The translations under genes were made by a program, and so were the position numbers. From Geosiphon pyriformis uo1 (Eukaryota; Fungi; Glomeromycota), in the NCBI GenBank assembly GCA_016748015.1, contig JAAOMT010000664.1, positions 628,715-692,714 of the forward strand: 64,000 nucleotides of DNA. The letters are read 5' to 3'. The notes beneath the pieces are model-generated. The model was given only the letters and a program-made list of their open reading frames with translations. It was not told the origin of the DNA and did not search any database. This document shows positions 13,216 to 59,382 of the stretch, piece after piece. Each line of letters starts with the position of its first letter. Positions within the stretch are counted from its first letter, which is position 1.

Positions 13216-14594
13216 TATTACTAGTGGTTTTTGTCAATATTTGAAAATATTTCTTAGTTCAACTGGTAATACATATTACCATAATTATATTATTAACTAT
13301 AGTATATTATAAGTGTATAGACTATTTCAGTAGGTAGAAGAATGAAAGAGAATATATGATAAAGTCATTAAAAGTAAAAAAAAGTATTGTTATTATTATT
13401 TGTTTTTGGACAAAAACCAGTTTTAGGTATTTTAAAGAAAAAAAAAAGTCATATCTCTTTATATATATTAGAAATACAACCAACAACATAAGTAAAACCA
13501 ACTATTCTAAGAAATACATAATCAGAATTCTTTTAATTAGTTATTAAAAGAGTGTAATGTTCAAATGCTCAGCTTTGAAAGTAAAGTTAAAGAAATTATA
13601 AAAGAGTCATAAAAGTAAAAACATGACTGAAATAAATTTTGATTAAACTTTTTATTGTTGAAATCACTTTCTAACAATATGATATTTTATTACTTATTTT
13701 AATATTTTAACAACTTGTTTAGTAAAACAAGACTTAATAGTAATAACACATAATTTAAAAGATTAAAAGTAATAAAAAAACTTGAAATAGTAATAACAAG
13801 TAGATAAGAAGTTATAATAATGTAATTTCAAATAGTAATAAGAAATATGTAAAAAGCATACTTGAAATTGTAATAACAAGTATTTAGAGCATAAGAAAAA
13901 AAAAAAGAATAAAGTATAAAGAAAAGAACTAATTGCTTACTATAAAACTATAGCAAAAAGTTGGCTCAGTATTTAACTGATACTTTTTTGAGCTGACAAA
14001 AAAGCTATATATATAGCTAAATTATATCAGATCTACATACTATATTAAGACTATTTAAAATACATCAATTATTTATATACATTAAATTAATTAATTTGTG
14101 ATAAGCTTACTCGATTTGTTATTTATCTAAAAGCTAGTAATTTAGATGATTAGATTTAGATGGCTGGATCTAAAACATTAATCATAAATCAATAATACTA
14201 ATTGTGATTATAATCAATTAATTACATTTTTTGGTAATCACTTTTAACTATTAATCACAGATTTGAAATGTTAGATTGTTTTAATAAGAGCATATAAAAA
14301 TCTTGGAGCATAATAAAGCCTGTTGTTATTAAATTACATATGTCAATCATTTATTTTCATTGGTGTTTCTTAGTTTGTCAAGGTTTTTTTGTATCCAATT
14401 TAGTTAAACTGTTGAATTGTGTCATATTTTTTTGTTATAATTAAACTGATTGCTGATTATTTATTTTCAAATTGCCAGCTGATTTTGTTAATTAAGTGTA
14501 ATAATATAGGTCTTTTTCACATGGTTTTGATATTAATTTTTATTGTATCTATTGTAATTTTTGTATTAAAAAGTGTAAAATTTTTTTGGTAACA
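13216..14594. mobile_element. Solo LTR (unrelated family C, 1379 bp) in the A2 RT/RNase H connection
   Basis: T(G>A)TTACT...GGTAACA termini and 4-bp TSD ACAA. Removal restores QVQQQAFDTLKEK. Confidence 0.8.
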
Positions 14595-17355: not shown

Positions 17356-18299
17356 TGTTACCAGTAAAATTTAGCTATTAATTAACATAAAATTATTTTT
17401 ATAATTTTTATTATTAATTAGCATATATTAATATTAAATTATTACTTATTATTTAATCAAATTATTAAATATTACTATTTAATAATAACTTGATTTATAT
17501 AATAGAAATTAGAATAATCAAACTACCCAATACCCCAAACTATGTAACATTTAAGAATTTGCCAAAATTTGTAAAAATTTGCTAAAATAATGAATAATTT
17601 ACCAAAATAATGAATAGTTTATTGAAATAACTTGTAATTCATTAAAATTACAGCAAAGAAAAAAGTTTAAGTTCTTAGACTAGTATTACAACAAATTATA
17701 TAAAAAAAGAGCTTCTTTCTTCAAAGAAATATATTTTATCTTACTCAAAATCATCTTAATTTGAATTAATTGGCTTTACAAAAAAGTAATAAAAACACCA
17801 AATACTTAAAAACCAAATTTCTTAACTATTTATGAAATTTTCCTGAAATTCAACTAATATTTTGAAATTAATTAACTACCAATTTCAGTAATCTGTTAGT
17901 AATTTCAGGTCTGAATAAAAAACAATTTCTTTAACAAAATTCTATTTTTTTTATATTTTTTATATTTTTTTATATTTTTCTTATTATAATCATTAGAGTA
18001 GCCTACAGATGAGATTCCTGTAGAAAAGTTAACTTTTATAGCAAAGTAATTACATATTTTTACTAAGCTTTCAAATAAACAATTTCTGAAAAAAAATTGA
18101 CTTTTACTATAAAGTAACTATATACAATAATTGGTATGGAATTGGCTATTCTACTTATAAATTCAACAGTTTAAATTATAAGAAATAATTTAAAAATAAA
18201 TTCAGTTATCAGAGATTCAATAACTTTTAATAAATATGAATTCATAACAAACAAGTATTAACAACATTCTAAAAAAAAAACCAAAAATTTTTGGTAACA
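17356..18299 (+). repeat. A2 3' LTR
   Basis: TGTTACC...GGTAACA, preceded by a PPT eroded to an A-run. Confidence 0.9.
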
Positions 18300-21200
18300 A
18301 TGATTATAACATGAATAAATTAGCCATTAACTTCTTTAAATTCACAAAAAAAAAGAAAAAAACCAAGAGTAATTTCATTATAGAATCCAATAAAGTTTCT
18401 ACATTAATTTTTAATAACAATAAGCCACTAAAGACTAAAGTTTTTAAGAATTCTCTAAAGTTAGAATCTTTAGAAATTGTACAAAAATCTGAACCCTATT
18501 TTGTTGTCAAAAATCTTATGAAAACTCTAGTTCACATTACTTTTGGCCAGTTAATAACTTATTTAAAAAAATTTTTACAAATTATTAATCTCAAAAAAAA
18601 AACACCAAAAACTAATAAGTACTTTTATCAAGCTGAATTCACTAATAATAGTAATGTCACTCCTCTAATTTGCAAAGTTCAAGTAATTGATTATTTTATT
18701 GATTTGATCTTAAACAGTAAATTATTTATTAGTGTCATTGTTAAACACTTTTTTGAAGTTATTAGCAAAAAAATTGATAAACTTTTGACTCAGTCTATAA
18801 CCAATATATATAATAACAAAAAGAAAAGTCTTGATATAACCAAAGCTGTTTTTGTCTACATTAATAACATTAGCATTGAAACTGACATGAAAGTTTTAAA
18901 AGCAAAAAAATATACTATTATTGTTGGTAATAAATAATTTAAGAAAACCAAAGTCTTATTTGACTATGAACTATATAAATTAATTATTAGATATAGTAAG
19001 AAGCTTATTGTAGTTAAATATTATTATTGAACAACACTTCTAATACTCAAGCAGAACCAAGAAGAAGAACAATTAAATAAATCAGATAATAAAAAAAACA
19101 ATGAAGAAAAAAAACAAAAAAAAACTGCTGAATTTGCCTATACTATCTTTACTAGTAATAACAAATCACTAAATAATATTAAAACTGATAAAAAAAGAAT
19201 TATTGTAAATAGCAAATTAATCTGTTAGCTTTACTATGATATCTTTAAAAAAATTTTTAATAGAAAACCTGGCAAAAAAACCAAATACAATTATTAATAG
19301 CATAGTTTTTATGCCTAGTACTAGTGCAATAAATCTTTGTATTTTCTTAGTAATGAATACAAATTTTGTCTAATCTATTACAAAGATTGAGAACCCATTA
19401 GTTTAATATTCAGAGAAAAAATAAAAGAAGTATAAAAGTTTTTTAAGAATAAATTACCTAAAATTTAATCACTAATTATAAAACAAAAAAAATCTTTTTC
19501 AAAAAAAAAAAAATAAACCAAATAAAAAACCTTGAATTTATACAAGAAACCAAGAGCAAATAGGTTTTTTAATTGTAGTAATATCTAAAAAAATAGAACT
19601 CTATGCTTTTATGTTAACTATTACTAATTAAATACTATTACTGAAAAAGATATATATCTACTTTCTAAAATTGATACAATATTAAACCAATTCAATAGTG
19701 CTGCTTTTTTTTCAACTAATGATTTAACTGTTGGATTTTAACAAGTAAAAATAAATCCAAAAAAACTGCTTTTATTACCAAGTATAGCACTTATAAATTT
19801 ACTATTATGCTTTTTGGTCTTATTAATGCTTTTCTTACTTTTCAATATCTAATAGACAAAGTATTTGAATCAGTAAAAAATAACTTTGTTTTAATTTATT
19901 TGAACAACATAATAATATATTCAAAAATCTAAAATAAATACTTTAAATATTTACAAAAAGTTTTTGATCTTCTTAAAAATACTGGTCTTAAAATCAATTC
20001 AATCAAATTTTTTTGAACAACAATTTACTCAGTTTTTTGGTTATTTTATTATAAAAGATGGAATTTTTTTTAATCCAATCAAAGTCAAAAAAATTTAAAA
20101 TATTAAACAATCAATAAACATTCATAAACTATGCTCTTTTCTTGGTTTGGTATTTTATTATCAAAAGTTTGTTAAAGATTTCTCCAAAATTGCCTTTCTT
20201 TTTAATTAGCTATTTAAAAAAACTGGTAATTATTACTGGAATACACATCAGCAAAAAATCTTTGAAACTCTGAAAAAAAACTAGTTACTAAACCAATTTT
20301 TATGCAATTTAATCTGAACCAATTTTTTATTTTTTACACTAATACATCTGGTTTTAGACTTAGTATTGTTTTCTTTCAAAAAAATAAAGATAACAAAAAA
20401 CATATTATAGCTTATACCAGTTAATTACTTTTTTTAGCAGAGCAAAACTACTTAATTACTAAACAAAAATAACTGACAATAGTATAGATTACTAGTTATT
20501 GGAATAAATATTTTTTTGGTATCAAATTCTTAATAGTAACAAATCATTAAGCTTTGATTTGGCTATATAAAAAAAAGAACCTGGAACACAAAAAAATAAC
20601 TTACTAGATACTCCATTTGAATGAATTTAACTATAATATACAATATTGTAAAAAAGCTCATTATCAAAATATTAATGCTTTTTTTAGACTTATTATTCAG
20701 TAATAGTACAATTTTTCTAAATCAAATCAATCTAATTATTAATAAATCTTTCTTAAAAAAAATATAATAATAGACTTAAACAACTACTTTGTTTTAATGA
20801 AATTTTTAAATAAAGAACAATACCTATTAGACTATACTCAACAGCAAAAAAAACATTTACAAAAACAATCAAGTTTTTATTTAATTTACCAGAACTAATT
20901 ATACAAAAAAAATAAAAAAAATTCTGACTGTTCTTAAAGAGTTATTAAATTTAAAAAAAAATTGTGATCTATAATATGCATACTAATTTATTAGTTAAAC
21001 ACTTTAGAAAAACTAAAACAATTCAAAAAATTTTCACTCATTATTATTGGTCTATCTTAAGAAAAAACATTGTTAAATATATTAAAATCTGTAATATCTG
21101 TTAAAAAAAACTCCCCCCCCCCCAATTGTAAAGAAGACATTCATCCAATTTTTGTTGATTAACTATTTAACAAAATTGGTATAGATGTTGTTAGATTTTT

Positions 21201-22042
21201 AACCATAATTTTTAATAACAATAGATATATTATTACAGTTATTAACTATCTTATAAAGTAGATAGAAACAAAAGTTATTTTAAATTAAACAGCAGTCTCT
21301 ATTATCAACTTTATTTATAAAAATATTATTTGTTACTATAGCTGCACCAAAAAACTTTTATTTGATAAAAAAAAACGTTTTTTAATATACTGATTAAAAA
21401 ACTTTGTAAAAAAATATGAATACATCATAAATTTTCTTCTTTTTATTACTTTTAAATAAATAACTTAATAAAACATTTCAATAGAACTCTATGTGAAACT
21501 TTAGCCAAAACTAGTAAAAAACAAACTTATGAGACAAAATACTGTCTTTAGCTTTGTTTACTTATAGAACTGTAAATTATAATATAACAAGTTATGAATT
21601 CTTTTATCTGTTTTATAAATAAATGGCAATACTACTAATAAAAATTAATATTAAAACAATACTCTTTAAAAAAATTACTATAGAAAATTATAAAGACATT
21701 TTGCAAAAAAATTTGGTACTATTTTTGATTCATTGACAAAAACACAAATAATTGTTTTTAAAAAAATAAAGCAGTTTTAAGAAAAGTTTAAAAAAAAAAA
21801 CTTATAAAATACTTTCTTTAAGTATTGGTAATTTAGATTTAGAATACCACTTAAACAGAGACAATGTTTATGATAATAAATTTTTTAGTCAATAGAAAGA
21901 ATCCTTTATAATCAACAAAGTTTTAAATAATAATTTTTATATCTTACAAGATTAATATAAAACAATCTTTAATAATTATTCTATTTATAGCACATAACTA
22001 AAGAAATATTACAAATAATTTAATTGGTTATTTGTTATAATA

Positions 22043-24466
22043 TAATAATAAAAAAACTCTTTCTCTCCTAATTTATATGATTATAACTAGAGCTAAGAAT
22101 AAAAAAGCTGCAAATATTACTTTTTCTATAGTAACTAATAAAGTTTTAACATGAAAGAGTCTCTCTGTTATTGAAGCAGCTAAACAAAACATTTCTTTTA
22201 AAAAATATTAGTGAAAAGCTGCCTTTAGCAGCTTCTGATTTAGTTTTTTTACATTTGGTTAGTAGTTCTTTTCCAGTCAAAGTTCTTTTCAAAAAACACA
22301 TACAGATTAGTTTTAGTGTTGTCTCTACTACTTTTAAAAGCCCAAAAATTTTTAATAACAAACCAGTCAACAAGTTGGTCTTTTTCACTCTTATTATTCC
22401 CATTACTATTACTATTACTGCTGCTTTACAAATGAGTATAAAAGCCAAAAATTCCAAAAAACAGCAGCTGGTACTCACAACTGCTTTGGTGACACCAAAC
22501 TCCTTTGTAGTTCTAAATAAGATCTTGGATAAAATCTCTACAATAGCAGCCAGTCTTCTTTCTAATATAAATAACAACAGCAGTAGTACATTTCTTAAAA
22601 TGAGCCAAAATCAACTACTGGCTGTATTGCTTGATGTGGTACTCTTTAGCAGATCATTGCCAATATTAGAAACAAAACAGTCCATCATTTTAGATGATCT
22701 TAAAAATTGGATTAATCAAATGGAAATAAAATCAACTGCTTCTTTCCCAGTTTTTGGTGCTGTTAATAGTAATGCTTAGGAAAATGTAAATAGTCATTAA
22801 AAGTTCTCTGATTGGATGGCCTCTAATCTAATACCTAATATTATATTTAAGATTAAAATGACTTTGCTTGTTTTTTTGTTTCAGTTGCTGCCTAGTTGTA
22901 TTGGACTTAAATCTGTTTTATAAGATGTTATTAAGTTGTTCTGTGTGGAATTTGTATCTCAGAAGAGTCTAAACAGTGCCACCAAAGTGGCCATTAATAA
23001 TGAAATTTTTCTGACCACTTTTAAGATTGAATGGTCTTCTGGTATGGCCTCTGTTTTTTCTTTTTTTTTGTTAGTTACATTTTATAATGTACTTTTAGAT
23101 ACTTTTTCTAATAACATCAAATTCTCTCTAGATGTTTTTAATGTTATTACTTCAATCAAGTTAAAGTTTGCTGGCTTATGGCAATATGCTGTGGTTCAAT
23201 TTTAAGACTCTTTTTCTGCTGCTGCTGCTCTTACTTATTGGTTGGTACTAGTAAAAAAGAACAGTATTAGAATTCTGTCTTTAGTTAACCAAAAGGAGAT
23301 TATTACTTTAAAAGATGCTTTCAAAGCCAAGTTGGTTAATCTTTCTTTTGGCTGTACTGCCTTTGAGATTAGTGATTTGGTCTCTCAAGTTGGTAGCTGT
23401 ACTTGTTTCATTCTCTGCTCCTTTAAGTCATACCAACATCAACATTTTGCTGTGGTTATTTTTGATTCCTTGGAATCTTTGAACACTGCTGTTTCAAAAA
23501 CTAGTACTTTATGTGACTGCTGCATCTGGTAGAAAACTCTTGGATGTTGCTGCTGCTACAAATGTCAAGATTTAAATCATTTGACTGTGAACTACAAAGT
23601 GTTGTCATCTTTTTTTTTCAAATTTTCTTCCAATTCTGCTGGTGGTCCCAAAATTTTCAAGTCATCTTTTGTTGGAACTAAATCTTATGCCAAAGCTGTC
23701 ACCTCTGTGGTTTTTTCTGTTGCTGTTGTTGCTAATATAGATTTGGCTTTTGCTGTTCCTCCTAAAGATGTTATATTTCTGTTGTTTGTTGTTTTCTCTG
23801 GTTCAGATGTTGCTGTTAATATTAGGTTGGCTTTTCTGGAAACCTATTTTAATGAACTGTCTTTGTTAATAAAATTTATAGTTGAGCCTGTGAGTTCTCT
23901 GGTTGTGTTGATTACTAAATTACTGTTTACTCCACCTGTCATGGCAGAGGCATTAAAGAAAAGTATGATTAGAATGACAATCCAAATTAAAACTATAAGT
24001 ACTGTGGCTTCTTTGCTGCAAAAAAAATAGTGGACCTCAAAAAAAAAGTAAGAAAGTCTGTTTTATTGATGTATCTGAAGATAAAAACATGGGTGATAAT
24101 GATGTTAATAATGATGTTAAAAATTTCTCAGTTTATAATGACATATTTGATGCAATAATAAAATTATGAGAGAATCAATTTTTTAGTATCAAATCTAATT
24201 CTGATTAAACTGTTAAGTGAATGAATAGTTTTGTTAAGAGTTGTTATAAGCTTGTTTGCATTATAAGTAAGATGTATGAATTAGATACATTTAGTACATT
24301 AAGTAGCATAGATAGTATTAATATATAGTTAGGACTTTTTGCTTGTGGCTAGTTATATTTTGTAATATTGTATTATTGAGTAAGCTGGCTTTATAAAAGT
24401 GCCAACTATATTGTTAAACAAACTAATAAATGATCAGCATAATTACATGTTAACAAAAAAAAATTC
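22043..24466 (+). mobile_element. ORF1-only non-LTR element E1 (~2.4 kb): decayed ORF ~22077-24328 with RRM-like segments, CCHC knuckle and coiled coil; short 3' UTR and A tail
   Basis: CYKCQDLNHLTVN(Y), KSYAKA. A-run 24455-24463. Decayed ~12-bp TSD (22031-22042 vs 24467-24478) in the B0 integrase C-terminus. No EN or RT sequence seen. Confidence 0.78.
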
Positions 24467-24898
24467 TCTGTTGTGATAATACTGATCTAAATAATTAGCA
24501 AAACTCAAATATAAATAAATATACTATTTTTAAAACAGAAGTATCTTTAATCAACATAAACAATTATTTTCTGAATTAAAACATTCAAAACACTTTTTAT
24601 ATTTTTTATAAATATTGAATCAAAAATTATTTAAACACTACTTTGATCATTGAAAAACAAACTATTATAATTGACAACAGTAGAACACATACTGTTATTA
24701 AACTAAAGAAAACCACTACTAAAAAAAAATTGGTAACAAAATAGATAAATATCTGCTAGAAAGCATAATAGCAGCAATACTTATATCTTCTATTATAATT
24801 GAAAAAACAATTAAGAAAATCTTATCCATAGACAAAAACTTGTCATATAGAAAATAACTAAATCTTTATGATTATCTTTATAAAATTATAGAAGACAT

Positions 24899-25979
24899 TG
24901 TTATCCAAGTAGAAAAACCGATCTAAAGTTATGAAGAAATGTGACCAAAACATGACATAACACAGAATAGTGTACAATAATATTGAATAATGTGTTATAA
25001 CATAGGATAACATGTTATAACACAGGATAACACAAAATAGCATGCAATAACGTTGGATAAACACATTATAACATAGAATAATATGTTATAATGTAAGATA
25101 ACACATAATAACATATAATAATATCAAATAACATGTTATAACATAGGATAACTAGTGATAACATAGAAAAACAAAGCAATAACAGAAATAATAAAGCAAT
25201 AACTAGTGATAGTGAGACAATTGAAAGCAATTTTGTAAAACCAAAAGAATGTATAAAAGCAAGTAGTAGTAGAAGGTAGAAAAAAGAACAGATAGATACA
25301 AACCTCTAAACAAGAATCAAATTTCCTTATCTCTTTATTATTTATTATCTTCCCTATTTTATCTTCTAAAATAAACCAATTATTAAAAAAATCAGAATCA
25401 CAAATTCATGTTCTCGAACTTTGTGGAATTTATGTAAATTAACCTTTGTCTCGTACCTTTGTTCTAGGACAGATGCTCTTAACATAACCACCTTGAACAA
25501 TTAATGATTTGGACCAATCACTCTTGATCACATCAATTGACAATACTAATTTATCTTTCCTTTCTTTTTTTTTTCTTTTTTTTTCTTATTTTTTGTGGAG
25601 TAGCAACATAGTAAAATCAACTGTTTGGAAATAGACTTTGTGATAGCCTGGTAAAAGAGAGAAGCTCCCCCTAAGTTTTGGATATTAACATTATTTTGTT
25701 AGCTTACCAGAAAGGTGAAAAGACAATGCCAGACCTTAATGACTGTACTTGTTAGCTCAGAGAAGAAAACTCACATTTATGGAAAACATTGTAATCGATA
25801 AAAGACAAACTCTATGCCTTATAACCAAAGAACTCAATGGATAAAATCACATCCAAAAATAGATCTTCAGAAACTAATAATCAAGACTAAGCCAACAGAA
25901 TTATGCGAAAAATACATCATTAATAATTGAGAGCACTAAACATTACCATTTCCCATATCTACCAAGTTTACCTGTAACA
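24899..25979. mobile_element. Solo LTR (unrelated family F, 1081 bp) in B0 ORF3
   Basis: TGTTA...GTAACA termini and TSD ACAT. Removal restores IEDIKL. Confidence 0.85.
24950..25170. repeat. Tandem ~10/20-bp repeat (ATAACATAGG/ATAACATGTT) inside solo LTR F
   Basis: Directly visible periodic units. Confidence 0.8.
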
Positions 25980-26262
25980 ACATAAAGCTTATAAAGAAAA
26001 CAACTTCAAAAATACAAGTGAAAATTTTGGACATTATATAATTAAATATCCCAAAAGTTTTAACTATTACATAAAAAACCAAAACTCTTATATAAAAATT
26101 TGATCTTTTGAATACAAAACTTATTTTAATTTAGGTATTATATACTTTATCTACAAAAAACTTTACCAAATTAATTAGTTTTAAATTAAACAAAACTCTT
26201 TAATTAAACTATTTTTTAAATAGCTTGATTTTGTTAAAGCTTAATTTTTTTAAAGAGAATAA

Positions 26263-26934
26263 TCTTATGATTAAAAATCATAGTTTTTATTAGTTATTAC
26301 ATATATTAGCCACTAATATTACATAATTAGCCATTTTATTTTTAGATAGTAATTATTAATCTAATTATTAACCTAATTATTAAGTTGATTAATAACTTAA
26401 TTGTTAACTATTTTTAATAGCTATATAAACAATAAGTTTTTTAATTATAACAGTATCAATGATTGAATATAAAAAAAAAAATAACAATTATTATTTTAAT
26501 TTTTCTTATATTACTTATTTCTCTTTTTTTATTTTTAAGTATCTAAACATCTTAGAATAAAAAATTACTTGTTGGCATTTTTTTTATTCTTTTTTTAATT
26601 CATATAATTGTAGTATTTGAAAATTATTAAATAAAATATAATTAAAAAGCATATTTAATATCTAATATTGAATTCTAAAAATGCTAATATAAAGCATAAA
26701 ATTATACCAGTGTGTTATTATTTGTTAACAGTACAGACTATCTCTTTATCTTCAAATTTTCTGGTTATTTTTTAAAAAAAATAGCAATTAAGATATTTTA
26801 TAAGCTGATTTTATATATTGAATTCATAATTATTTAATTAACTTCTTAAAGTTGAATTTCTTTTGATCTATTCTATTATTATACAATTCTGGTTTTTTTT
26901 GCTATTTGTTAATTTGTTATTCCAACCTATAATA
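26263..26934 (+). repeat. B0 3' LTR (decayed)
   Basis: Homology to B1/B2 LTRs, including ~5 eroded 12-bp units; ends CCTATAATA (from CCTGTAACA). Confidence 0.85.
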
Positions 26935-28104
26935 ATAATATTAATTAAGTTATAACATATTATTTTATAATAAAAAATTATAATTAAAATAATATTATTA
27001 TATTTTGCTAATAAGTATAATTATTAATAATTTTTTATAATAAAAACCATATATAATTAATTAGAATATTTTATGTTTATATTAAGTATATTATTGTTTA
27101 TTTTAAGATAAAAAAGTTTTAAAAAAATATTTTTTACATAATTTTAATATTTAAAAATGTAAATTTGTATTAAATAAATCTAATATTATTGTTTTATATT
27201 TAAGTATAAACAAATTAAACATATTATAACAAAATATAATTTTAATAATAAGTTTTTTAATTATATTAAAAAAAATATAATTATGCTTATTAAATAATAA
27301 CTAATACATATATATATTAAAAAACAGATTTTTATTGCTTATTTTTTTTTAATAAAAAACTTAAATACAGATTGCTAAAAATATTTTTTCTTAATTTTTA
27401 TTTGGTATTTTTTTTAATATTAATTATTTACAAATATTAAATTTTTTTAGCAGTTTTAAAAAATATAAAACTAAAATTTACTGGTTTAAAATATAGTTTT
27501 GTTTATTTTATAAAAAGTTAAAAAAAAATTAAGTAAATAATATAGTAATAAAAAAAGTTTAAATATGTTTATTAATAGTAAAACTACTAATAATTAAAAA
27601 TTACTAAAATTTAAAAAGTTAAAATTAAATATAATAATATTATTATTAAGTTTAATAATAAAAATAAACAATTTTGTTTTGTTTTTAAACATAATAAACT
27701 ATTATTTCAATAATTAATTTAATTTAAAAATTTATAACATATAATATAAATAATTTTGCAAAACAAAAAAACATTATAAAATAATATAAAATTATATTCA
27801 ATTTGATTTTAATTATTATTATAATTAAATTAAAAAACAAATTTAAACTGTAAATAATAAACATATTTAATAGTATTTATATTTTTATGTTAAATATATA
27901 TATAAAATTTTTAAAGTAACTAAAAAACTTTTATTAATTAAAATATTTTTTAAAAATAAGTTTTTTGTAATAATTTTAAGACTTTATGTTAATGTTTTTG
28001 TAAAACCAAAGCAAATATAAGTAAATAAAATCAATTTTTTAATAATTAAGATTAAATAATTTTAAATAATAAAATAATAATTTTAATAAAAATAATATTA
28101 ATAT

Positions 28105-28847
28105 TGTTACGAGTTGGAGTAACAAGCTAATGGATAGCAAGGGAGAACAGAATTGTAGGGTAGAAATAATCAAAAGGAATCTCAACTTTAAAGAGTGAAT
28201 TAAATAAGTATGGATTTAATGTGTGAGATCAGTCTCATAAAATATCTCAATTGCTATACTTTTCAAAAATAACCGGGGAATTTAAAGGTAGAGGGATAGT
28301 CCATACTGTCAACAAATAATTATACTGATATAATTTTATGCCTTATGTCAGCGCTCTTAGAATTCAATATCAAGTATCAAATGTGCTTTTCAGTCACATT
28401 TTATTCAATAATCTTCAAATACTTCATTTAATCGTTTCAGGAAAAGGCAGATAAACACCAACAAGAGATCTTTTATCTTTAAGATGTTCAGATACTTGAA
28501 GATAGAGAAAGAGAAATTAGCGATAAGAGAATGTTTGAGATGAAAGTTGTTTTATTATATTTCTTTGATTGTTGGGAACATACTTTTCTACAGCTAAGAG
28601 ACTCATTGTTTATATAGCTATGAAAAGTGGTTAACAATCAGGTCAATGATCAGGTCAATGATCAGATCAATGATCAGGTCAACGGTCAGGTCATTGATCA
28701 AGTCAATGATCAGATCAATGATTAGGTTAACAGTTAGGTCATTGATCAGGTCAATAATTACTATCTAAAAATAGATTGGCTAATTATATGACATCAGTGG
28801 CTAATACATGTGATAACTAATAAAAACTATGAGTTTCAACTGTAACA
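28105..28847 (-). repeat. B1 3' LTR
   Basis: TGTTAC...GTAACA; direct repeat of 35147-35860. Confidence 0.95.
28629..28760. repeat. 11 tandem 12-bp units GGTCAATGATCA in U3, just upstream of a TATATAA box on the minus strand
   Basis: Counted directly. 9 units at 35667-35773, 2 at 37290-37313, 3 at 44786-44821. Confidence 0.9.
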
Positions 28848-29473
28848 TCATCCTCTTCAAAGAGATTAAGCTCTGGCAAAATCAAACTATTTATAAAATA
28901 TTCTAATTGAAGGGTTTTATCTAACTTAAAACTAACTAGTTTGTTAAAATTTTTTGTGAATAAAGTGTATAGTACTTGAGGCAAAATGAGCTTTGTATTC
29001 AAGAGACCAAACCTTTGTATAAGAATTTTGGCTCTTCTGGCAATGGTCAAAACTCTTGAGACATTCAACCATATAATGTCCAAAATTTCTACTTGTATCT
29101 CTGAAGTTGTTTTTTTCATGAGCTTTATGTCTTCTATGATTTCACCAAGACAACCATAGAGCTCTAGTTGTATTCCATATGACAAGTTTTTGTCTATGGA
29201 CAAGATTTCTTTAATCATTTTTTCAATTGTGATGAAAGGTACAAGTATTGTTGCTGTTATGCTTTTCAACAGATATTTATCTATTTTGCTACCAATTTTT
29301 TCTCTTCTGGTAGTTGTTTTCTTTGGTCTGATAACAGTATGTGTTCTACTGTTGTCAGTTATTGTAGTTTGTTTTCCAATGGTTAGAGTAGCATTTGGAT
29401 GGTTTTTAATCCAATACTCATAAAGAATATAGAAAGCATTTTGAATGTTTTGATCCAGAAAATAATTGTTTAT
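28817..29473 (-). pseudogene. B1 ORF3, unknown helical protein (218 aa; start ATG>ATA), runs 31 nt into the 3' LTR
   Basis: Stop-free frame 28817..29569. B2 has ATG at the homologous position 38026 and the same 657-nt length. Confidence 0.8.
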
Positions 29474-29514
29474 GTCAATTGAAGATACCTCTGTTTTGGG
29501 AATGGTGCATTTAT

Positions 29515-30828
29515 TTATACTTGGTTTTTGCTGATCATTTGGATCAGTATTACCACAACTGGTAACCAATTAGGTTGTTTGTGATATTTCTTGAGTTGCA
29601 TGCCATGAACAGAATGATCATTAAAGATTGTTCTGGATTGATCTTGAAGAATATAAGAACCATTGTTCAAAACTTTGTTGACTATAAAGGGATCTTTCTA
29701 CTGGCTAGAGAATTTATTACCATAGACATTGTTTCTGTCTGAGCAGTATTCCAAAACTAAGTCACCAATACTTAAAGAAAGTGTTTTATAAGTTTTCTTC
29801 TTTTTAAGCTTTTCTTGGAACTGTTTTATCTTTTCAAAGGCAATTATTCATGCTTCTACAAGTGAGTCAAGAATGGTACCAAGTCTCCTTTGCAAAATGT
29901 CTTTGTAATTCTCTATTGTGATCTTTTCAAAAGATATTGTCTCAATATCAGTTTCTATTGATAGTGTTGCCATTTGTCTATAGAGCAAATAAAAAGGTTC
30001 ATAACTTGTTATGTCATGATTCACAGTTCTATAAGCAAACAAAGCTGAAGGCAGTACTTTGTCCCATAAGTTTGTTTCTTCACTTGTTTTGGCTAAAATT
30101 TTACACAGTGTTCTATTAAAACGTTTTACTAGATCATTTGTTTGGAGGTAATAAGGAGAGGAAAGTTTGTGACATATTTCCATTTTTCTACAAAGTTTTT
30201 CAACCAGTGTACTGAGAAAAGCTCTTCTTCTATTAGATAAAAGTTCTTTGGAGCAGCCATGGCAACAAATAATATCTTCATAAATGAAATTAGCAATGGA
30301 AATTGCTGTTTGATCTGGGGTGGCTCTTGCTTCTACCCACTTTGTAAGATAGTCAGTAGCTGTAATAATATATCTATTGCCATCAGGAGTTACTGTTAAT
30401 AATCCAACAACATCTATACCAATTCTGTCAAAGGATTGGCCAACAGAGATTGGATAGATGTCTTCTTTGTGATTGGATTTTCCTCTTCTTTGGCAAGTAT
30501 CACAGGTTTTGATGTACTCAGCAATGTCTTTTTCCAAGATAGGCCAATAATAGCAAGCTAAGGTTTTCTGAATTGTTTTTGTTTTTTCAAAGTGTTCAGC
30601 TAATAGATCAGTGTGCATATTATAGATCACAATTTTTCTTTCTTCAAATTTTATGACTCTCTGGAGGTGGTCAGGATCTTTTCTGTTTCTTTTGTATAGT
30701 TGGTTCTAGCGAATCAAATAGAAATTTGATTGTTTGCACAAATGTTCTCTTTGTTGTCAATTGTATTTTGGTGGGTATTGTCTTTTATCCAAAAATTCCA
30801 TTAAGACAGAGTAGTTGTCCAAGTTCAT
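29515..30828 (-). pseudogene. B1 integrase, a separate ORF starting MNLDNYSVLMEFLD
   Basis: H..H..CDTCQ, GIDVVG, LVKRFN; C-terminus WLPVVVI; contains ORF 29848..30630. Confidence 0.9.
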
Positions 30829-30893
30829 TATTGTGTTTGGTTGTGAGAGAATTACTAATAATTAGGTTGGTTTGGTTTGAGGTAGTTGTACTG

Positions 30894-33553
30894 TCACTGG
30901 ATGATAAGTCTAGAGAAAGCATTAGCATTTTGATGATGTGCTTCTTTGTGATGTTTAATATCATAGTCGAATTCATCCAAGTGGAGTATCCAGTAAGTTA
31001 TTCTTTTATGTTCCAGCTTCTTTTTGTTGTATAACCAAACCAAAGCTTGGTGATCTGTTACTACCAGGAATTTGGCACCAAGAAGATATTTGTTCCAATA
31101 ACTAGTAGCCCATACTACTGCCAGGCATTCTTGTTCAGTCACTAAGTAGTTCTGCTCTGCTAGTGAGAGAGTTCTACTAGTATATGCTATGGCATGTTCT
31201 TTGCTATCTTCATCTTTCTGGAATAGAACAGCTCCAAGTCTATAGCCAGATGTATTAGTGTAGAGGATGAAAGGTTGATCTAGATTAGGTTGCTTCAGAA
31301 TTGGTTCAGTGACTAGTTTTTCCTTTAGAGTTTCAAAAGCTTTTTATTGGTGTGTGCCCTAATGATAGTTGATGTTTTTTCTGAGTAGCTGATTAAGTAG
31401 AGCAATAATAGAAAGCCAAACCAAGAAAAGAGTGTAGTTCATGAACATTCATTGGTTGTCTAATGTTCTGGACTTTTTCAACCTTAGCTGGATCAGGAAA
31501 AATTCCATCTTTTGTGATAAAATGACCAAGGAATTGGGTAGATTGTTTTTTAAAAAAAGATTTGATCAGATTAATCTTGAAACCTGCATTTCTGAGAAGA
31601 TTAAAAACCTTTTACAAATGTACAAAGTGTCATCCCAGGTTTTTGAGTACACCATTATATTGTCCAGATAGACCAAAACAAAGTTTTTTTTCACTGATTC
31701 AAATACTTTATTCATTAAGCATTGAAAGATGGGAGAGGCATTGGTGAGACCAAAAGGCATGACTGTAAATTCATAGGTACCATACTTGGTGATGAAGGCG
31801 GTTTTCTTCTGGCTTTTTGGATTCATCTCTATTTGCCAGAATTCAGCAGTTAGATTAATAGTTGAAAAGAAAGCAGCATCTTTAAATTGGTTCAGCATTG
31901 CATTAATCTTGGGAAGTAAGTACATGTCTTTTTTAGTGATGGCATTTAATTGGTAGTAATCAACACAGAAGTGTAAGGCTCCACCTTTTTTGAATACCAC
32001 TACAACTGGAAAAGCCCATTTACTCTTGGTTTTTTGTATGAATTCAAGTTCTTTCATCTGGTTTATCTCTTTCTTGATGAACTCATCATTGTGCCCATTG
32101 GATTGATATGACTTCAAATGGATGGGGTGAGTTTCTCTGGTGGTGATAGTGTGTTGTATCACATGGGTTTGTCCTGGGGTATCACTTTTTTTTGAGATAA
32201 CTGGGCTGTTTCTTACCAACAGATTTTCAATGTCTATTTTTCTTTCTTCTGGAGAGGGTTTTTTTGTTCTACAATTAGTGATTGGATCTTAAGTGGTTCA
32301 TTTTCAAAGAACTTTTGGATTTCTTTCAATTCTTCTCTAAGTATTAAACTGATTAGTTCCTAATCTTTGTAATAGATCAGACATAATTTGCATTCATCAT
32401 TTGGAGAATACAAAAGTTGGTTGTACTAGCACCAGGCACAAGGACCATGTCACTAATAATGGTACTTGGCTTTCTTGCTAGGCTTCCGGTCAAAAGTTCT
32501 TCTTAGGATATCATAGTAGGGCCAGCAGATCAGCTTGCCATTTACAATGATTCCTTTTTTGTCAGCTTTGATATTGTCCAATGGCTTGCCATTGCTGGTG
32601 AAGGTGGTATAAGCAAGTTCAGCAGTTTCTTCTTGTTCCTCTTGTTCTTTATTATTATCACTTTCTTTATCATCTGATTCCTCTGATTGTTCTTCTTCCT
32701 GATTCTGTTTTGGTATTGGAGGAATTGTCCAGTGGCAATACTTAACCACAATGGGCTTCTTACTATATCTAATAATTAGTTCACAAAGTTCATAGTTAAG
32801 TAATGCTTTGGCTTTCTTAAGCTATTCATTTCCAACAATAATAGTGTATTCCTTGGCTTCAAAAACTTCCATGTCAGTTTCAATGCTGATGCTATTGATA
32901 TGGACAGGAACAGCTTTGGCTATGCCCAGATCTTTTTTCTTGTCACCATGTACATTGGTCATTGGTCAGGTAAAAGATTCATCAATCTTTCTTCCAATTG
33001 CTTTCAAAAAGTGTTTGGCAATGACGCTAACAGATGATCTACTGTCCAGGATCAAGTCAATGAAATAGCCAGCCACTTGGGCTTTGCAAATTAATGGGGT
33101 GACATTGCTGTTGTCAGCAAGTTCAGCTTAGTGAAAGTGTTTATTGGTTTTTGGTGTTTTCTTCTTAGAAATTAGAGATTTGTGGAGATCTTTTCTGAAT
33201 TGTGGGTGGATTATTAGTTGGCCAAAGGTAATGTGTGCAGGAGTTTCTATGAGATCTTTGACAACAGAATAAAGTCTAGATTTTTGTACTATTTCTGGGG
33301 GTTCCAACTTTGAAGGATTTTTAAAGACTTTAGCCTTTGGTGGCTTATTATTATTAGCAGTTGATGTGGATAGTTTATTTGGATCTGAAATGAAATCAAC
33401 CTTGGCTTTCTTCTTCTTTCTTGTTAATTCTGAGGTGTTAATTGCTAGTTCATTCATGTCATGATCATTATCAGTTAAGTTAAAAGCATAAAAAGAGTTT
33501 TTTTCTGGTTGGCTTGCACTCTCATCTTTTGAAGGTGCACCTACCAGTTTAAA
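30894..33553 (-). pseudogene. pol: B1 pro-pol (protease, Cys-rich segment, RT, RNase H), ends AFSRLIIQ*
   Basis: LILDSRSS, MPFGLTNA, VYLDN, EQECLAVVWA, VTDHQAL. Confidence 0.9.
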
Positions 33554-35094
33554 GGCTGGTAAACTGTGGCTTCAACTAGGAGATCCTCTCCAAAGAAATT
33601 GATGTTGGCATGATTGGGTCTTTGATTGGGGGCATTGTTGTTATTGATTCTGTTGTTCTGGTTGTCATTGTTTCTAGGAACTGGAGGAGGCAAAAGAGGA
33701 TTGTTGCAATCTCTGGAGAAATGTTCAGTTAATTCACATCTATAACACACAGAAGGGCCATAATTTTGCTGTCTTTGATAAGAGGGTTGCCGGGACTGAT
33801 TAAAACGGTTTTCAAATCTGGGTCTTTGTGGTTGTTAGTTATCTCTGACTGCTTGGGCTAATGGTTCTAATAGCTGAACAAGATTTGCTGTAAGTCTATC
33901 TATTAATTGTTCATTTGAATCTTGTATCTGGGCAGCAAAAAAAATAGCAGCCATTTAAAGAGTAGGAGCCATAACAGAAGCAGGAGCAAAAACTGGAAGT
34001 GTGGATTCCAAATGCATTCTTTGGTTGTCTTCAATTCATTGGGCAAGTTCAATGGCCATGTCTATTGTAAGATTGTTTTTTAGGGCTAAGAAAGGCCAAA
34101 AAGCATAAGATAAATTGGTTCTCAATCCTTTTGTGAAGAAATGAATCTTTTGCTCTTCTGTCTAATTTCTTCCAGAGTCTACATGCTTGATTAACTTTCT
34201 GATTGCTTTAGCATATTCAGTTACAATTTCACCAGGGCCTTGAGTTCTTTTTTCTAATTCCATGTGCCACTTGGATATCAAGATTAGAGTTCTGAACTTG
34301 TTTTTCAACTGGGTTGTGAAAAAGGTGTTGTTTTCTCCAGCATTTGCTGGCATCCATCTAATAATTTTTTGATGGGCATTAGCATCAGTTTCCTGTGAGA
34401 ACCAGGTAGCAGGAGAGCCTTGAAGGTAGCCACCAACAATTTAAAACTTGTATTCATCATCGTATTGGTTGGCTGTAGCAGCTCTCTCAAAGTCATCCAA
34501 CCATTCAATTGGATCTTGGGCATCACCTCTGAATAATGGTAATGAGGTGTTGTTTCTTTGCCCTAAAGCAGTCTGTATATCTTGGAGGGCAATCAGAATG
34601 TTTTGTTGTAGAGGGTCTTGAGCCATTGGTTCAGATGTAACTGTTTGTATGAAGTGTTCTGATTCACTTGAAAAAAGATCAAAAACAGGAGTGGTTTGAT
34701 AGCTTTCTTCTTCTGTTTCAAGAGAAGTTTCTGTTGATTGATGGGCAACAATCTAAATGTAGATTTAATAATTCAGATATTCAAAATCAAGAGACTGTTG
34801 TTCAAAGGTTGCAGAATATAAAAGTTGATTAATACTGTTGTTTCTTTCTTCAAAGTCGTCTTCAAAATAAGCTTGGTCAAAGTAATAGATTGTATAAGCT
34901 GTGTAGGTTTCAGCTGAATGCTCATTCAAGAACCAGTTCCAAAAGTCTTGGAATTGTCTGCTGGATTGTTTTTTAATGGGAAAGCAAATCAAGCAGGAGG
35001 GCAAAGAATTGAGTTCAATAAAGTCTAGATTGTTTTTGTTGTGTGCTTTAAAGTGTTCTTTTAATTGTTATGGCAGATATGAATAATCACTCAT
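33541..35094 (-). pseudogene. gag: B1 gag with ~156-aa N-terminal extension, capsid and CCHC knuckle
   Basis: ATG 35094 is in frame with MAQDP (34626). Motifs DPIEWLDDFERAA and CYRCELTEHFSRDC. Confidence 0.85.
33547..33553 (-). promoter_or_regulatory. -1 ribosomal frameshift heptamer T TTA AAC at the gag/pol junction (also 42674-42680)
   Basis: Correct phase in gag; pol lies in the -1 frame in both copies; downstream GGTGCAC...GTGCAAGCC stem. Confidence 0.8.
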
Positions 35095-35122
35095 ATAATA
35101 GGAAACAAAGTGGATTTTGACA

Positions 35123-35140
35123 ATCTCACAGGGAGCACCA
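35123..35140 (-). promoter_or_regulatory. PBS, probably elongator tRNA-Met (TGGTGCTCCCTGTGAGAT; B2 copy 44250-44267)
   Basis: Complement resembles eukaryotic tRNA-eMet 3' ends (..ACCTCAC-7nt-ACCA), recalled rather than searched. 6-nt spacer to the LTR. Confidence 0.75.
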
Positions 35141-35146
35141 CTTTTA

Positions 35147-35860
35147 TGTTACAGGTTGGAGTAACAAGCTAATAGATAGCAAAGGAGAACAGGATTGTAG
35201 AGTGATGGAAATAATTAAAGAGAATCTCAACTTTAAAGAGTGAATTGAATAAGTATGGATTCAATATGTGAGATCAGTCTCATAAAATATCTCAGTCGCT
35301 ATACTTTTCAAAGGTAACCGGGGAATCTGAAGGTAGAGAGATAGTTCATACTGTCAACAAATAATCACACTAGTATAATTCTATGCCTCACATCAGCACT
35401 TTTAGAATTCAATATCAAGTATCAGATGTGCTTTTCAGTCATGTTTTATTTAATAATCTTCAAATACTTCATTTAATTGTTTTAGAAAAAGGCAGATAAA
35501 CACCAACAAGAGATCTTTTATCCAAAAGATGTTTAGATACTAGGGAAAAGGAAATTAGCAATAAGAGAATGTTTGAGATGAAAGTTGTTTTATTATATTT
35601 CTTTGATTATTAGGAACATACTTTTCTACAGCTAAGAGACTCATTGCTTATATAGCTATGAAAAGTGGTCAACAACCAGATCAATGATCAGGTCAAAATT
35701 AGGTCATTGATTAGGTCAATGATCAAGTCAATGATTAGGTCAATGGTTAAATCATTGATCAGGTCAATGATTACTATCTAAAAATAGATTGGCTAATTAT
35801 ATGACATCAATGGCTAATACATATAATAACTAATAAAAACTATGAGTTTCAACCATAACA
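35147..35860 (-). repeat. B1 5' LTR
   Basis: TGTTAC...ATAACA, adjacent to the PBS. Confidence 0.95.
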
Positions 35861-36759: not shown

Positions 36760-37400
36760 TATTACAGGTTGGAGTAACAAGCTAACAGATAGCAAGAGAA
36801 AACAGGATTGTAGGGTGATGGAAATAATCAAAGGGGAATTCAACTTTAAAGAGTAAATTGAATAAGTATGGATTCAATGTGCGAGATCAGTCTCATAAAA
36901 TATCTTAGTTGCTATTCTTTTCAAAAGTAACTGGGGAATCTGAAGGTAAAGGAATAGTCCATACTGTCAACAATTGATTACCACTGGTATAATTCTATGC
37001 TTTATGTTGGCACTCTTAGAATTCAATATCAGGTATCAACTTGTGCTTTTCAGTCATGTTTATTCAAATAATTTTCAAAAGCTACAATTATATACGTCAG
37101 GAAAAGGCCAACAAGTAATCTTTTATCTTTAAGATGTTTAGATACTTGAAGATAAAGAAAGAAAAATTAGTGATAAGAGAAGGATTGAGATGAAAGTTGT
37201 TATTTTATTTATTCTTGATTATTCAGATGCTTGTTATTACATGTTTTTCTACAGCTAAAAGATTTATTACTTATATAGCTATCAAAAGTAGTCAATGATC
37301 AGGTCAATGATCATTTTCTAAAAATAGTGTGACTAATCATATGACATCAGTGGCTAATATATGTGATAATTAATAAAAAGTATAGATCTCAACCATAACA
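36760..37400 (-). repeat. B2 3' LTR
   Basis: T(G>A)TTAC...ATAACA; direct repeat of 44274-44908. Confidence 0.94.
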
Positions 37401-39802
37401 TCATCTTCTCCAAAGAGATTGAACTCTGGTAAAATCAAGCTATTTATAGTATAATCTATTTGAAAAGTTTTATCTAACTCAAAGCTAACTAATTTATTGA
37501 AGTCTTTTGTAGATAGGGTGTATAATACTTAAGACAAAATGAGTTTTGTATCCAAGAGACCAAATCTTTGTATTAGAGTTTTGGCTCTTTTAGCAATAGT
37601 TAAAACTCTTGGAACATCTAATTGTATAATGCCCAAAATTTCTGCTTGTATCTTTGAAGTTGTTTTCTTCATGAGCTTTATGTTATCTATGATTTCACCA
37701 AAACAATCATAGAGCTCTAGTTGTCTTCTATATGACAAGTTTTTGTCTATGGGTAAAATTTCTTTAATTGTTTTTCCAAGTGTGATAGAGAGTACAAGTA
37801 TTGCTGCTGTTATACTTTCTAGCAAATATTTATCTATTTTGCTACCAATTTTTTTTCTTTTGGTAGTTGTTTTCTTTGGTCTAATAACAGTATGTGTTCT
37901 ACTGCTAACAGTTATTGTGGTCTGTTTTCCAATAGTCAAAGTAGCATTTGGATAGTTTTTGATTCAATATTCATGAAGAGTATAGAAAGTGTTTTGAATG
38001 TTTTGATCCAGAAAATAATTGTTCATGTCAATTGAAGATACCTCTGTTTTGGGAGTGGTGCATTTATTTATATCTGATTTTTGCTAATCATTTGAGTTGG
38101 TATTACCACAACAGGTAACTAATTAGATTATTTGTAATATTTCTTAAGTTGTATGCCATGAACAGGACAATCATTAAAGATTGTTCCAAATTGATCTTGA
38201 AGAATATAAAAATCATTGTTTAGAACTTTGTTGACTATAAAGGGGTTCTTTCTATCGGTTAGAGAATTTATCACCATAGACATTGTCTTTGTTTGAACAG
38301 TATTCCAAAACCAAATCATTAATGCTTAAGGAAAGTGTTTTATAGGTTTTTTTTTTCTTAAGCTTTTTTTGGAACTGTTTTATCTTTTTAAAGGCAATTA
38401 TCAGTGCCTCTACCAATAAGTCAAGAATGGTACCAAGTCTTCTTTGCAAAATGTCTTTGTAATTCTCTATTAAGATTTCTTCAAAAGGTATTGTCTCAAT
38501 ATCAGTTTCTATTGATAGTGTTGCCATTTGTCCATAGAGCAGGTAAAAAAGTTTATAACTTGTTATGTTATAATTTACAGTTCTATAAGCAAACAAAGCT
38601 GAAGACAGTACTTTGTTTCATAAGTTTGTTTTTTCACTTGTTTTGGCTAAGGTTTCATACAGTGTTCTATTAAAATATTTTACTAGGCCATTTGTTTAGG
38701 GGTAATAAAGGGAGGAAAGTTTGTAATGTATTCCCATTTTTCTACAAAGTTCTTCAACCAGTATACTGAGAAAAGCTCTTTTTTTATCAGATAAAAGTTC
38801 TTTAGGGCAGCTATGATGACAAATAATATCTTTATAAATGAAATTAGCAATGGAAACTGCTATTTGATCTGGGGTGGCTCTTGCTTCTATCCACTTTGTA
38901 AGATAGTTAGTAGCTGTGATAATATATCTGTTGCCATTAGAAGTTACTGTTAATGGTCCAACAACATCTATACCAATTCTGTCAAAGGATTGGCCAACAG
39001 AGATTGGATGGATGTCTTCTTTGTGATTGGGTTTTCCTCTTCTTTGGCAGATATTACAGGTTTTGATGTACTCAGCAATGTCTTTTCCCAAGATAGGCCA
39101 ATAATAGCGAGCTAGAGTTTTTGGAATTGTTTTTGTTTTTCCAAAGTGTCTAGCTAATGGATCAATGTGCATGTTGTAGATCACAATTTCTCTTTTTTCA
39201 AATCTTATGACTCTCTGGAGACAGTTAGGATCTTTTCTATTTCTTTTATATAATTGGTTCTAACAGATCAAATAAAAATTTGATTGTTTATGCAAATGTT
39301 CTCTTTGCTGTCAAGTGTATTCTGGTGGGTATTGTCCTTTACCCAAAAATTCCATTAAGGCAGAGTAGTTGTCCAAGTCCATTATCGTGTTTGGTTGTAA
39401 GAGAATTACTAATAATTAGGTTGGTTTGGTTTGGGAAGTTGTATTATTACTTGGTAGTAAGTCTGGAAAGAGCGTCGGCATTTTAATGATTAGCTCCTTT
39501 ACAGTGTTGAATATCATAGTTGAATTCATCCAAGTAGAGTATCCAGTGGGCTATCCATTTATGTTCTAGTCTTTTCTTGTTGTGCAGTCAAACCAAAGCT
39601 TGGTAATCTGTTATCACCAAAAACTTTACTCCCAGAAAATACTTATTCCAGTAACTGGTAGTCCAGACTACTGCTAAGCATTCCTGCTTAGTAATTGAAT
39701 AGTTCTGTTCTGCTGATGTAAGGGTTCTACTGGCATATACTATTGTATGTTCCCTGCCATCTTCATTTTTTTGTGACAGAACAGCACCAAGTCCATAACC
39801 AG

Positions 39803-40338
39803 TGTTACGGGATGGTTTTCTTGTTATATTTAATTGCTGATATCCCGTTTTAATTGCAATCAGTCTTTCGTGAGTTCCTCAGTTCTATTTGTGTGATAAT
39901 GTCACTGTTACACTGAAGGCTTTCTTTTTACTGTTGTGATGTAAGTTATTCTTTAATTCTTGATTGTTGTATGTGTTTATGTACTCTTTCTCAGAGGCTG
40001 AACTGAAATCTACCCACTGTCTGGGGTCTTCTCTGAGGCTATCCTTGCAACAACAACANNNNNNNNNNNNNNNNNNNNCCCAATATTAAAACTACTGTAT
40101 ATATACATGTTTGTAGTTCTACAAGAAAATACTTTCTTTTTGATATTTCAACCTGGTGTTTGCTGCTATCACCAGTTGGTGTTGGCTGCTATTGTGAACT
40201 GGTACTTGTCACTATCGCGAGATGGTGTTTGCTACTATGTTAATCATTACCTTTCTAAGATTATTACTGTGCTATATTATGATTGAATAGTTTGTATTAT
40301 TTTTATGATTCTTTTTGCTAAATTCTTAAACCATAACA
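39803..40338. mobile_element. LTR-bounded insert (family D) in B2 RNase H, spanning an assembly gap
   Basis: TGTTACGG...CCATAACA termini and TSD CCAG. Confidence 0.85.
40059..40078. other. Assembly gap (20 N)
   Basis: N run. Confidence 1.
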
Positions 40339-59336: not shown

Positions 59337-59382
59337 TGTTTGTTGTTTTGTTGTTAATTCAAATGGGTGTTGGTTTTGTATT

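Follow-up and report, generated by a model that had tools for sequence, protein, structure and literature searches.

Extra open reading frames between pol and the 3' LTR form a known class, mostly of unknown function (PMC7264820, PMC5408684). Among Ty3/Gypsy elements, sense additional ORFs (aORFs) such as the plant env-like aORFs and the bdelloid ORF3s are family-wide and lie between pol and the 3' LTR, as does the frame described here, likewise termed ORF3. Antisense aORFs are represented by gene23 of Grande, which is nuclear and driven by a promoter of its own (PMC7264820; PMC5408684), and by Boty of Botrytis, the only fungal case named in the portion of the review drawn on here (PMC7264820); ORF3, in contrast, is a sense frame. 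In foamy viruses, the accessory gene by the 3' LTR (Tas/Bet) has an internal TATA promoter, and its product binds both this internal promoter and U3 (PMC3798896). The VANC proteins of Arabidopsis VANDAL elements are transposon-encoded, fast-diverging anti-silencing proteins with family-specific tandem-repeat targets (PMC5735166).

The DNA analysed here, a 64-kb stretch that we refer to as the window, holds a cluster of decayed LTR retrotransposons set in AT-rich sequence, in which two families, A and B, carry ORF3 between a stand-alone integrase (IN) and the 3' LTR. Unlike the known aORFs, ORF3 lacks a TM segment and matches neither env nor lipase nor exonuclease; it comes after a stand-alone IN ORF, continues through the purine tract into U3, and resides in an early-diverging fungal host. 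Its resemblance to foamy virus Tas/Bet is an analogy of layout only: ORF3 has no Pfam match at E≤0.01 and no env, its host element is a fungal Gypsy element rather than a retrovirus, and its promoter and binding are putative. VANC belongs to DNA transposons; no sequence link between it and ORF3 was found, and demethylation by ORF3 is hypothetical. We found no description of ORF3 in the literature searched, which lay outside the Geosiphon genome papers, Repbase, GyDB, subscription papers and supplements, and a prior annotation is possible. What appears to be new, judging from sequence, is a sense, non-env ORF3 family with no known relative, in fungal elements with a stand-alone IN. Drawing on sequence features, structural models and analogy, we give a probability of roughly 40% to the reading that ORF3 is a self-targeting, DNA-binding activator or anti-silencer of its own family's LTR promoter.

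Element anatomy and ORF3 copies

The host elements are Ty3/Gypsy elements by domain order (gag, PR-RT-RH-IN), TG...CA LTRs, primer-binding site (PBS) and purine tract. Across the A and B copies, Pfam domains follow the order Retrotrans_gag, Asp_protease_2, RVT_1, RT_RNaseH, Integrase_H2C2 and rve. Family B includes two full-length elements, both on the minus strand: B1, with a TG...CA 3' LTR at 28105-28847 and a 5' LTR at 35147-35860 that is 90% identical to it with only 3 transversions, and B2, with LTRs at 44276-44908 and 36762-37400. The internal region of B1 (30894-35146, minus strand) holds a PBS (TGG..., about 35131-35140), decayed gag-like and protease-like frames, and the RT and RNase H recognized by Pfam. 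Family A is represented by two partial elements, A0 and A1 (A1 3' LTR at 56187-57166, minus strand), and decayed plus-strand copies of both families are also present. The two families are indeed distant, as the earlier note had held: IN is 40-42% identical between them and RT-RH 37%, and their LTRs share no similarity (best blastn match 11 nt, E 0.31).

'Hypothetical proteins' of Geosiphon pyriformis account for all 120 listed matches to B ORF3 (128 in total) and all 120 listed matches to A ORF3 (196 in total), with 20 of the former exactly 218 aa and 23 of the latter exactly 239 aa long. Since all listed ORF3 homologs are from this fungus, the host is likely G. pyriformis or a very close relative. 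At least 240 'hypothetical' gene models of the species, counted among the matches listed, can be reassigned as transposon ORF3 copies or chimeras. LTR sequences are reported to make up 41.2% of the Geosiphon genome (PMC11952901).

Several other features of the elements were observed. A PBS starting TGGTGCTC is common to A and B (35131-35140, 44260-44270 and about 6900-6911) although their LTRs are unrelated. From just behind the PBS to the capsid domain, both families have a gag frame that is free or almost free of stops over 150-250 codons (stretches at about 6330-6910 and 34700-35140, minus strand); the A0 stretch has no early ATG, so gag may carry a long N-terminal extension with an unusual start. 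Family A has a dUTPase domain between protease and RT (61250-61882, minus strand; Pfam PF00692, E 1.8e-18 in A1), with a second at about 3050-3670 (minus strand), and upstream of the family A dUTPase lies a Cys-rich segment with a weak Yippee/Mis18 match (E 0.002, below the cut-off); no dUTPase motif was found in family B. Relative to B1, B2 carries an insertion of ~540 bp at 39803-40338, which holds a 23-bp tandem array (40154-40238). Elsewhere in the window, long ORFs without Pfam matches (321 and 168 aa; 53367-56090, minus strand) adjoin an RVT_1 fragment (55731-56090, E 2.7e-5) and possibly belong to a non-LTR element, and 22017-23413 and 46672-48048 form another repeat pair (region 22017-24030 / 46672-48048).

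The copies differ almost only by transitions (88 transitions and 9 transversions between the ORF3s of B1 and B2) and are depleted in CpG, at 0.0-0.24 of the expected frequency. This CpG loss comes without CpA loss, a pattern that may be better accounted for by methyl-CpG decay than by RIP. Transposable elements of AM fungi have been described as CpG-methylated and targeted by small RNAs (PMC8647823). The plus-strand A and B copies (7903-27000) have a GC content of about 20%, compared with 33-38% for the minus-strand copies, which suggests that they inserted earlier or underwent C-to-T change in several rounds.

In B1, A0 and A1 a stop ends the RNase H frame, and integrase begins at an ATG of its own in another frame. 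The B1 integrase (29515-30828, minus strand), an ORF by itself after the RNase H stop, has 4 internal stops, and that of A1 (58083-59336, minus strand, 3' end approximate) is likewise separate, with 8. IN fused within Pol, the usual Ty3/Gypsy state, was not found in B1, A0, A1 or the metagenome contig L001, which share a variant layout. In A and B an A/C-rich spacer of some 50-70 nt separates the RH stop from the IN ATG (30828-30899 and 59336-59388), and in L001 (60-72) the RH stop overlaps the IN start, as in termination-reinitiation. L001 comes from a metagenome scan with the IN alignment (44 of 64 parts covered) that returned at least 5 loci, two of which extend past IN, while L003-L005 stop short. 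Its order is an RH-like end with a stop, a separate IN, a 160-aa ORF3, a purine tract and a TG-starting LTR, and its IN is 43-47% identical to those of A and B, for a range across lineages of 40-47%. None of the matches obtained from viral contigs with IN or ORF3 as query (8, 165 and 47 pattern matches in three scans) was confirmed as a relative.

The ORF3 frames reported in the earlier note are present in the window. The 218-codon frame of family B is open in B1 (28817-29473, minus strand), where its first codon is ATA rather than ATG, and recurs in B2 (37370-38026, minus strand) with an ATG start and 2 internal stops. The 239-codon frame of family A has 1 internal stop in A1 (57135-57854, minus strand), and its counterpart in the A' subfamily, located by tblastn on the plus strand at 16672-17375 (end approximate), is decayed and frameshifted. 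To these we add a fifth copy that the note had missed, a decayed B ORF3 detected by tblastn on the plus strand in two pieces (24556-24899 and 25976-26290) with about 1 kb of other DNA inserted between them.

Selection on ORF3 and the relationship of its families

Searched against 1.84 billion representatives, the A profile returned 35 matches, which include the Geosiphon lineages C (P0269/P0270) and D (P0271/P0272) and the metagenome proteins P0266 and P0268. These proteins are 17-37% identical to one another and to A over 170-229 aligned residues, and A-type ORF3 is found in at least six lineages. With the metagenome ORF3 proteins as queries, 33 matches were obtained, 30 from Geosiphon and 3 unnamed. 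P0266 and P0268 share their C-terminal tail with A, where it is encoded by the purine-tract junction, an indication that these genes occupy the same position in their elements.

We calculated dN/dS from transversions only, so as to sidestep the transition mutational bias. Between A1 and A', ORF3 has a ratio of 0.32, with 35 of 68 transversions at third positions (p=0.0015), compared with 0.18 for IN and 1.14 for the LTR control. The three B comparisons gave 1.33, 0.27 and 1.10 from just 9, 5 and 8 transversions and without a third-position excess, and the B LTR control itself has a nominal position bias (p=0.04) at a ratio of 1.27. The dN/dS analysis to which the earlier note had looked therefore indicates purifying selection in A (0.32 vs 1.14 for the LTR), the transversions in B being too few for a reading of selection there. 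ORF3 is a real gene under purifying selection in family A, and a conserved, selected accessory ORF that is neither env nor chromodomain is supported for family A and its relatives. That ORF3 might instead be an open frame without function, lying in an AT-rich 3' UTR, would agree with the decay of every copy in the window and with the missing third-position excess in the three B comparisons. We regard this as very improbable, and as largely refuted for family A, given the dN/dS of 0.32, the conservation of the full-length protein down to about 25% identity, the confidently predicted core and the fixed lengths in dozens of copies.

The relationship between A and B is a separate question, on which local comparison gave nothing. 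The two ORF3s had been aligned by eye, and neither blastp (E 15) nor hmmsearch (best 5.0 bits, vs 7.4 for the best of 1,050 shuffles) recovered this similarity; HMM-HMM comparison of the consensus proteins, which the note had put forward, yielded hhalign probabilities of 0.1%, 0.8% and 0.2%. B ORF3 is also absent from both A-side searches, that is, from the 35 matches among 1.84 billion representatives and from the 33 obtained with the metagenome queries. Global alignment, adopted post hoc after the local methods had failed, gave a different picture by way of intermediate lineages. The metagenome protein P0268 aligns with B copy P0012 at Z 7.3 (0 of 200 shuffles) and with P0003 at Z 4.4, and after tail trimming it has a median Z of 4.4 against 21 B copies, with reversed B reaching at most 2.5. 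Pooled over six lineages with the tail trimmed, the 21 B copies score Z 2.8-5.8 (median 4.6; window copy 4.5), compared with a highest Z of 2.6 among 104 decoys, which comprised 41 gag/pol/IN and other window tiles, 41 reversals of these, 12 YhcG domains and 10 reversed B sequences. Because the B copies are 81-92% alike, these 21 pooled scores amount to one test rather than 21. Moreover, the separately predicted A and B models run through their secondary-structure elements in one and the same sequence: a helix, a hairpin, a pair of helices, a long helix, another pair and a short helix. The ORF3 of L001 stands in a similar position, with hhalign E 0.0033 (probability 9.7%), pooled Z 3.4 and just 6.4 bits by hmmsearch against the A clan, and a median Z of 3.4 in global alignment with B.

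Taken together, homology of A and B ORF3 is probable but weak, and the alignment made by eye gains support from the pooled global comparison only. Under the converse explanation, which we consider the distinctly less likely, A and B carry unrelated ORFs gained at the same position, and their likeness reflects composition, amphipathic helices and the purine-tract tail. Every local A-B test is negative, as this would predict, the A profile retrieved no B sequence, lineage D has no signal to B in global alignment (median Z 0.0 and -0.3), and in other elements diverse ORF3 types are described at the same position (PMC5408684). It is less easily reconciled with the tail-trimmed pooled scores and the P0268 scores, both of which exceed those of their decoys, or with the shared order of elements in the two models. 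This explanation bears on homology alone and is independent of the alternatives for function considered below.

Predicted structure, the LTR overlap and the pre-LTR motif

The AlphaFold2 model of A ORF3 (13 sequences) has a mean pLDDT of 65, with a core block at 81-200 (pLDDT 75-93) and an unreliable tail at 213-239, and the B model is of low confidence (pLDDT 39.8). The predicted A fold consists of an N-terminal helix and a beta-hairpin followed by a compact all-helical core, in keeping with the earlier description of the protein as probably helical. Consecutive core helices are predicted at 108-128, 133-148 and 153-167. Among six lineage representatives, R162 is invariant (6/6), K138 is K/R in 6/6, and positions 156 and 158 are K/R in 4/6.

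Structural comparison thus had a confident all-helical A core to work with, and Foldseek found 0 matches to it at E≤0.001 in PDB and BFVD. The highest VIA-align scores were Z 5.7 with A and 6.2 with the poor B model, with the N-terminal part barely covered. The nearest HTH-like structure to the A core is a sigma-F fragment (1l0o_C; Z 4.7, rmsd 2.3, 57 aligned), which ties with unrelated bundles, and the CHD1 C-terminal domain (2n39) aligns at Z 5.1 (80 aligned, rmsd 3.0); by eye, a likeness to an HTH of the ParB/KorB type may also be seen. The scores for sigma-F, CHD1 and the best VIA matches are within the range of common helical arrangements, and the helical core is possibly a new fold.

Family searches likewise gave no assignment. 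Across 12 ORF3 proteins, no Pfam family matched at E≤0.01 (best E 0.011), and no env or chromodomain family appeared up to E 10; PHROGs, PDB-sequence and ESM Atlas searches returned nothing convincing (best an unnamed PHROG at E 0.0012, FtsQ at E 0.009 and Atlas scores ≤0.88). The maximum 19-residue Kyte-Doolittle mean is 0.66-1.35 in 13/13 ORF3 proteins, compared with a usual TM threshold of about 1.6. The earlier exclusion of env therefore holds, with neither a TM segment nor a hydrophobic signal peptide by this hydropathy measure and with no env family, and so does that of a chromodomain, with no Pfam Chromo match and a core predicted to be all-helical. Its description of the protein as basic does not: pI ranges from 5.4 to 9.3, two A-type metagenome proteins are acidic, and net charge varies. 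G-to-A decay, which changes Glu to Lys, may inflate basicity in the Geosiphon copies.

A weak likeness to DUF1016_N (PF17761, the YhcG N-terminal domain) was seen with P0131 (E 0.12), with the L001 ORF3 (E 0.11) and in ESM Atlas (rank 19, score 0.85). DUF1016_N is an uncharacterized helical region preceding a predicted nuclease (PMC1189080, PMC3424549). We rejected this assignment, with 13 bits vs a curated cut-off of 32.8 and an hhalign probability of 0.2% against YhcG N-domains from 61 of 81 loci, where the score of 14.3, between profiles that are both shallow, compares with a mean of 13.1 and a maximum of 17.9 for 60 shuffles.

The earlier note had also observed that ORF3 reads through the purine tract into the LTR, and likened this to nef. 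The read-through itself is clear, with ORF3 stopping 31 nt inside the LTR in B1 and B2 and 32 nt inside it in A1, and with the L001 frame entering its LTR by 32 nt. A GAGCT(C/T) motif (GACCTC in L001) stands 19-22 nt before the TG of the LTR in A, B, L001 and L002. On the minus strand of B1 the motif (28868-28873) precedes a purine tract (28848-28858) that abuts the 3' LTR; its equivalents are at 57186-57191 in A1 (purine tract 57170-57179), at L001:1835-1840 and at L002:1850-1855. This near-palindromic GAGCTC-type motif is kept in four lineages with unrelated LTRs and may act in cis, as a signal in plus-strand priming or in the packaging of RNA. The frame in which the L001 ORF3 crosses it is not that of A and B, and the lineage D protein ends on residues that match the motif in another frame, so that, from the protein, ORF3 of this lineage apparently stops before the purine tract. 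In an AT-rich U3, we estimate that a stop is to be expected within about ten codons. Since the frame differs in L001, lineage D ends early and the tail is disordered in the model, the overlap appears incidental, and it is probably an ORF running through a conserved cis element rather than a nef-like feature selected for its protein.

The same motif could serve as an RNA signal, and one alternative for the function of ORF3 is post-transcriptional: a factor in RNA binding or particle assembly, which would export the polycistronic RNA or recruit the separate IN to the Gag particle. An IN encoded outside Gag-Pol would need another route into the particle, and the basic helical patch suits RNA as well as DNA. 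Such a role also fits the co-occurrence of ORF3 with a stand-alone IN in all three lineages where ORF3 and its context are visible (A, B and L001). The association with a split integrase, proposed in the earlier note as a point to examine, holds for these 3 of 4 lineages and fails in L002, which has a related separate IN and keeps the motif before the LTR, but whose 3' region is different, broken and without a recognizable ORF3. No RNA-binding family or fold was matched, and we consider this alternative unlikely. In place of ORF3, L002 carries a His- and Cys-rich broken ORF at 1383-1900, suggesting that the ORF3 slot is swappable.

Regulatory features and the role of ORF3

For the reading of ORF3 as an activator or anti-silencer, the clues are a basic helix, a TATA box and arrays in U3, all circumstantial and spotted post hoc. 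A TATAAATA box lies 46 nt before the ORF3 start in B1 (29512-29519, minus strand), where it overlaps the stop codon of IN, and in B part of the motif thus comes from that codon. It occupies the same place, 46 nt before ORF3, in B2 (38065-38072, minus strand) and in the decayed B copy (24510-24517, plus strand). This is one of 2 copies in 6,299 nt of B1, and in 1,861 nt of L001 the only copy lies at -35; the chance of such placement in shuffled sequence, assessed post hoc, is 0.014 (B1) and 0.006 (L001). The box is a candidate internal promoter of ORF3. As a hint of a Tas-like internal promoter, the TATA box is present in B and L001 and absent in A1, whose 6,834-nt internal region lacks the TATA consensus. 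Putative splice signals, branch-point plus YAG motifs, are present upstream of ORF3 in B1 and L001 and absent from B2 and A1.

In the B1 3' LTR, a U3 array of about 10 copies of a 12-bp unit (28637-28755, minus strand) stands directly upstream of a TATA-like box (28608-28617, minus strand). The unit occurs in about 8 copies in the B1 5' LTR (35677-35771) and in about 2 in the B2 LTRs. The A1 3' LTR has an array of a 20-bp unit (56856-56949, minus strand) upstream of its TATA-like box (56777-56785), and short repeats were seen by eye before the U3 TATA-like box of L001. Enrichment of 7-mers is significant in 2 of the 6 LTRs completed, both from B1. Tandem repeats are common in the U3 of LTRs, and the VANC-like trait of family-specific non-coding tandem repeats, which both families possess in these 12-bp and 20-bp units, is necessary but far from sufficient.

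We hypothesize that ORF3 is made from its own short mRNA, which would start at the internal TATA just behind integrase and end in the 3' LTR, and that the three core helices, with K138, 156, 158 and R162, may form a helix-turn-helix-like DNA-binding module. The protein would bind the family-specific tandem array before the U3 TATA box, while its last 25 or so residues would arise passively, from translation running on through the purine tract and the end of the LTR. A joint divergence of protein and array is proposed as the reason why ORF3 has diverged far faster than IN. Evidence against the activator model includes the lack of a significant match to any DNA-binding fold, a net charge that is not conserved, the missing TATA consensus in A1, the B2 arrays of about 2 units, the low confidence of the B model and the separate IN of L002 with no recognizable ORF3 behind it.

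Fast divergence (17-37% identity in ORF3 vs 40-47% in IN) would also suit an arms race, as expected if ORF3 were a counter-defense adaptor binding a host RNAi or methylation protein without sequence specificity, and the host group does have transposon-directed methylation and small RNAs (PMC8647823). We hold this to be improbable: no suppressor family was matched, the core retains invariant residues across lineages, and every copy in the window is heavily transition-mutated anyway. Our ranking accordingly places a DNA-binding activator or anti-silencer ahead of an RNA- or IN-packaging factor, and the latter ahead of a host-protein-binding suppressor. Of the four roles that the earlier note had suggested, the circumstantial evidence most favors that of transactivator or anti-silencing factor.

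Extra ORFs by the 3' LTR have been described mostly in plants and animals, and ORF3 has been kept under selection in fungal Gypsy lineages that are deeply diverged. If it binds and activates its own U3 array, as the activator reading proposes, it would be a retrotransposon-encoded transcriptional regulator in fungi, and these would be fungal retrotransposons with a retrovirus-like regulator. More broadly, and with greater reservation, a Gypsy clade of Glomeromycotina might have independently evolved a programme like that of complex retroviruses, comprising gag-pol, a stand-alone IN and an internally promoted, sequence-specific activator or anti-silencer, possibly of a new helical fold, that co-evolves with U3 arrays; this wider scenario is speculative and, on balance, somewhat unlikely. 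If true, it would provide an analog of Tas and VANC in fungal retrotransposons and might go some way to account for the spread of LTR elements to 41% of the Geosiphon genome. Binding and activation of its own U3 array by ORF3, if borne out, would have implications for the escape of elements from CpG methylation in this fungus, whose genome is 41.2% LTR (PMC11952901).
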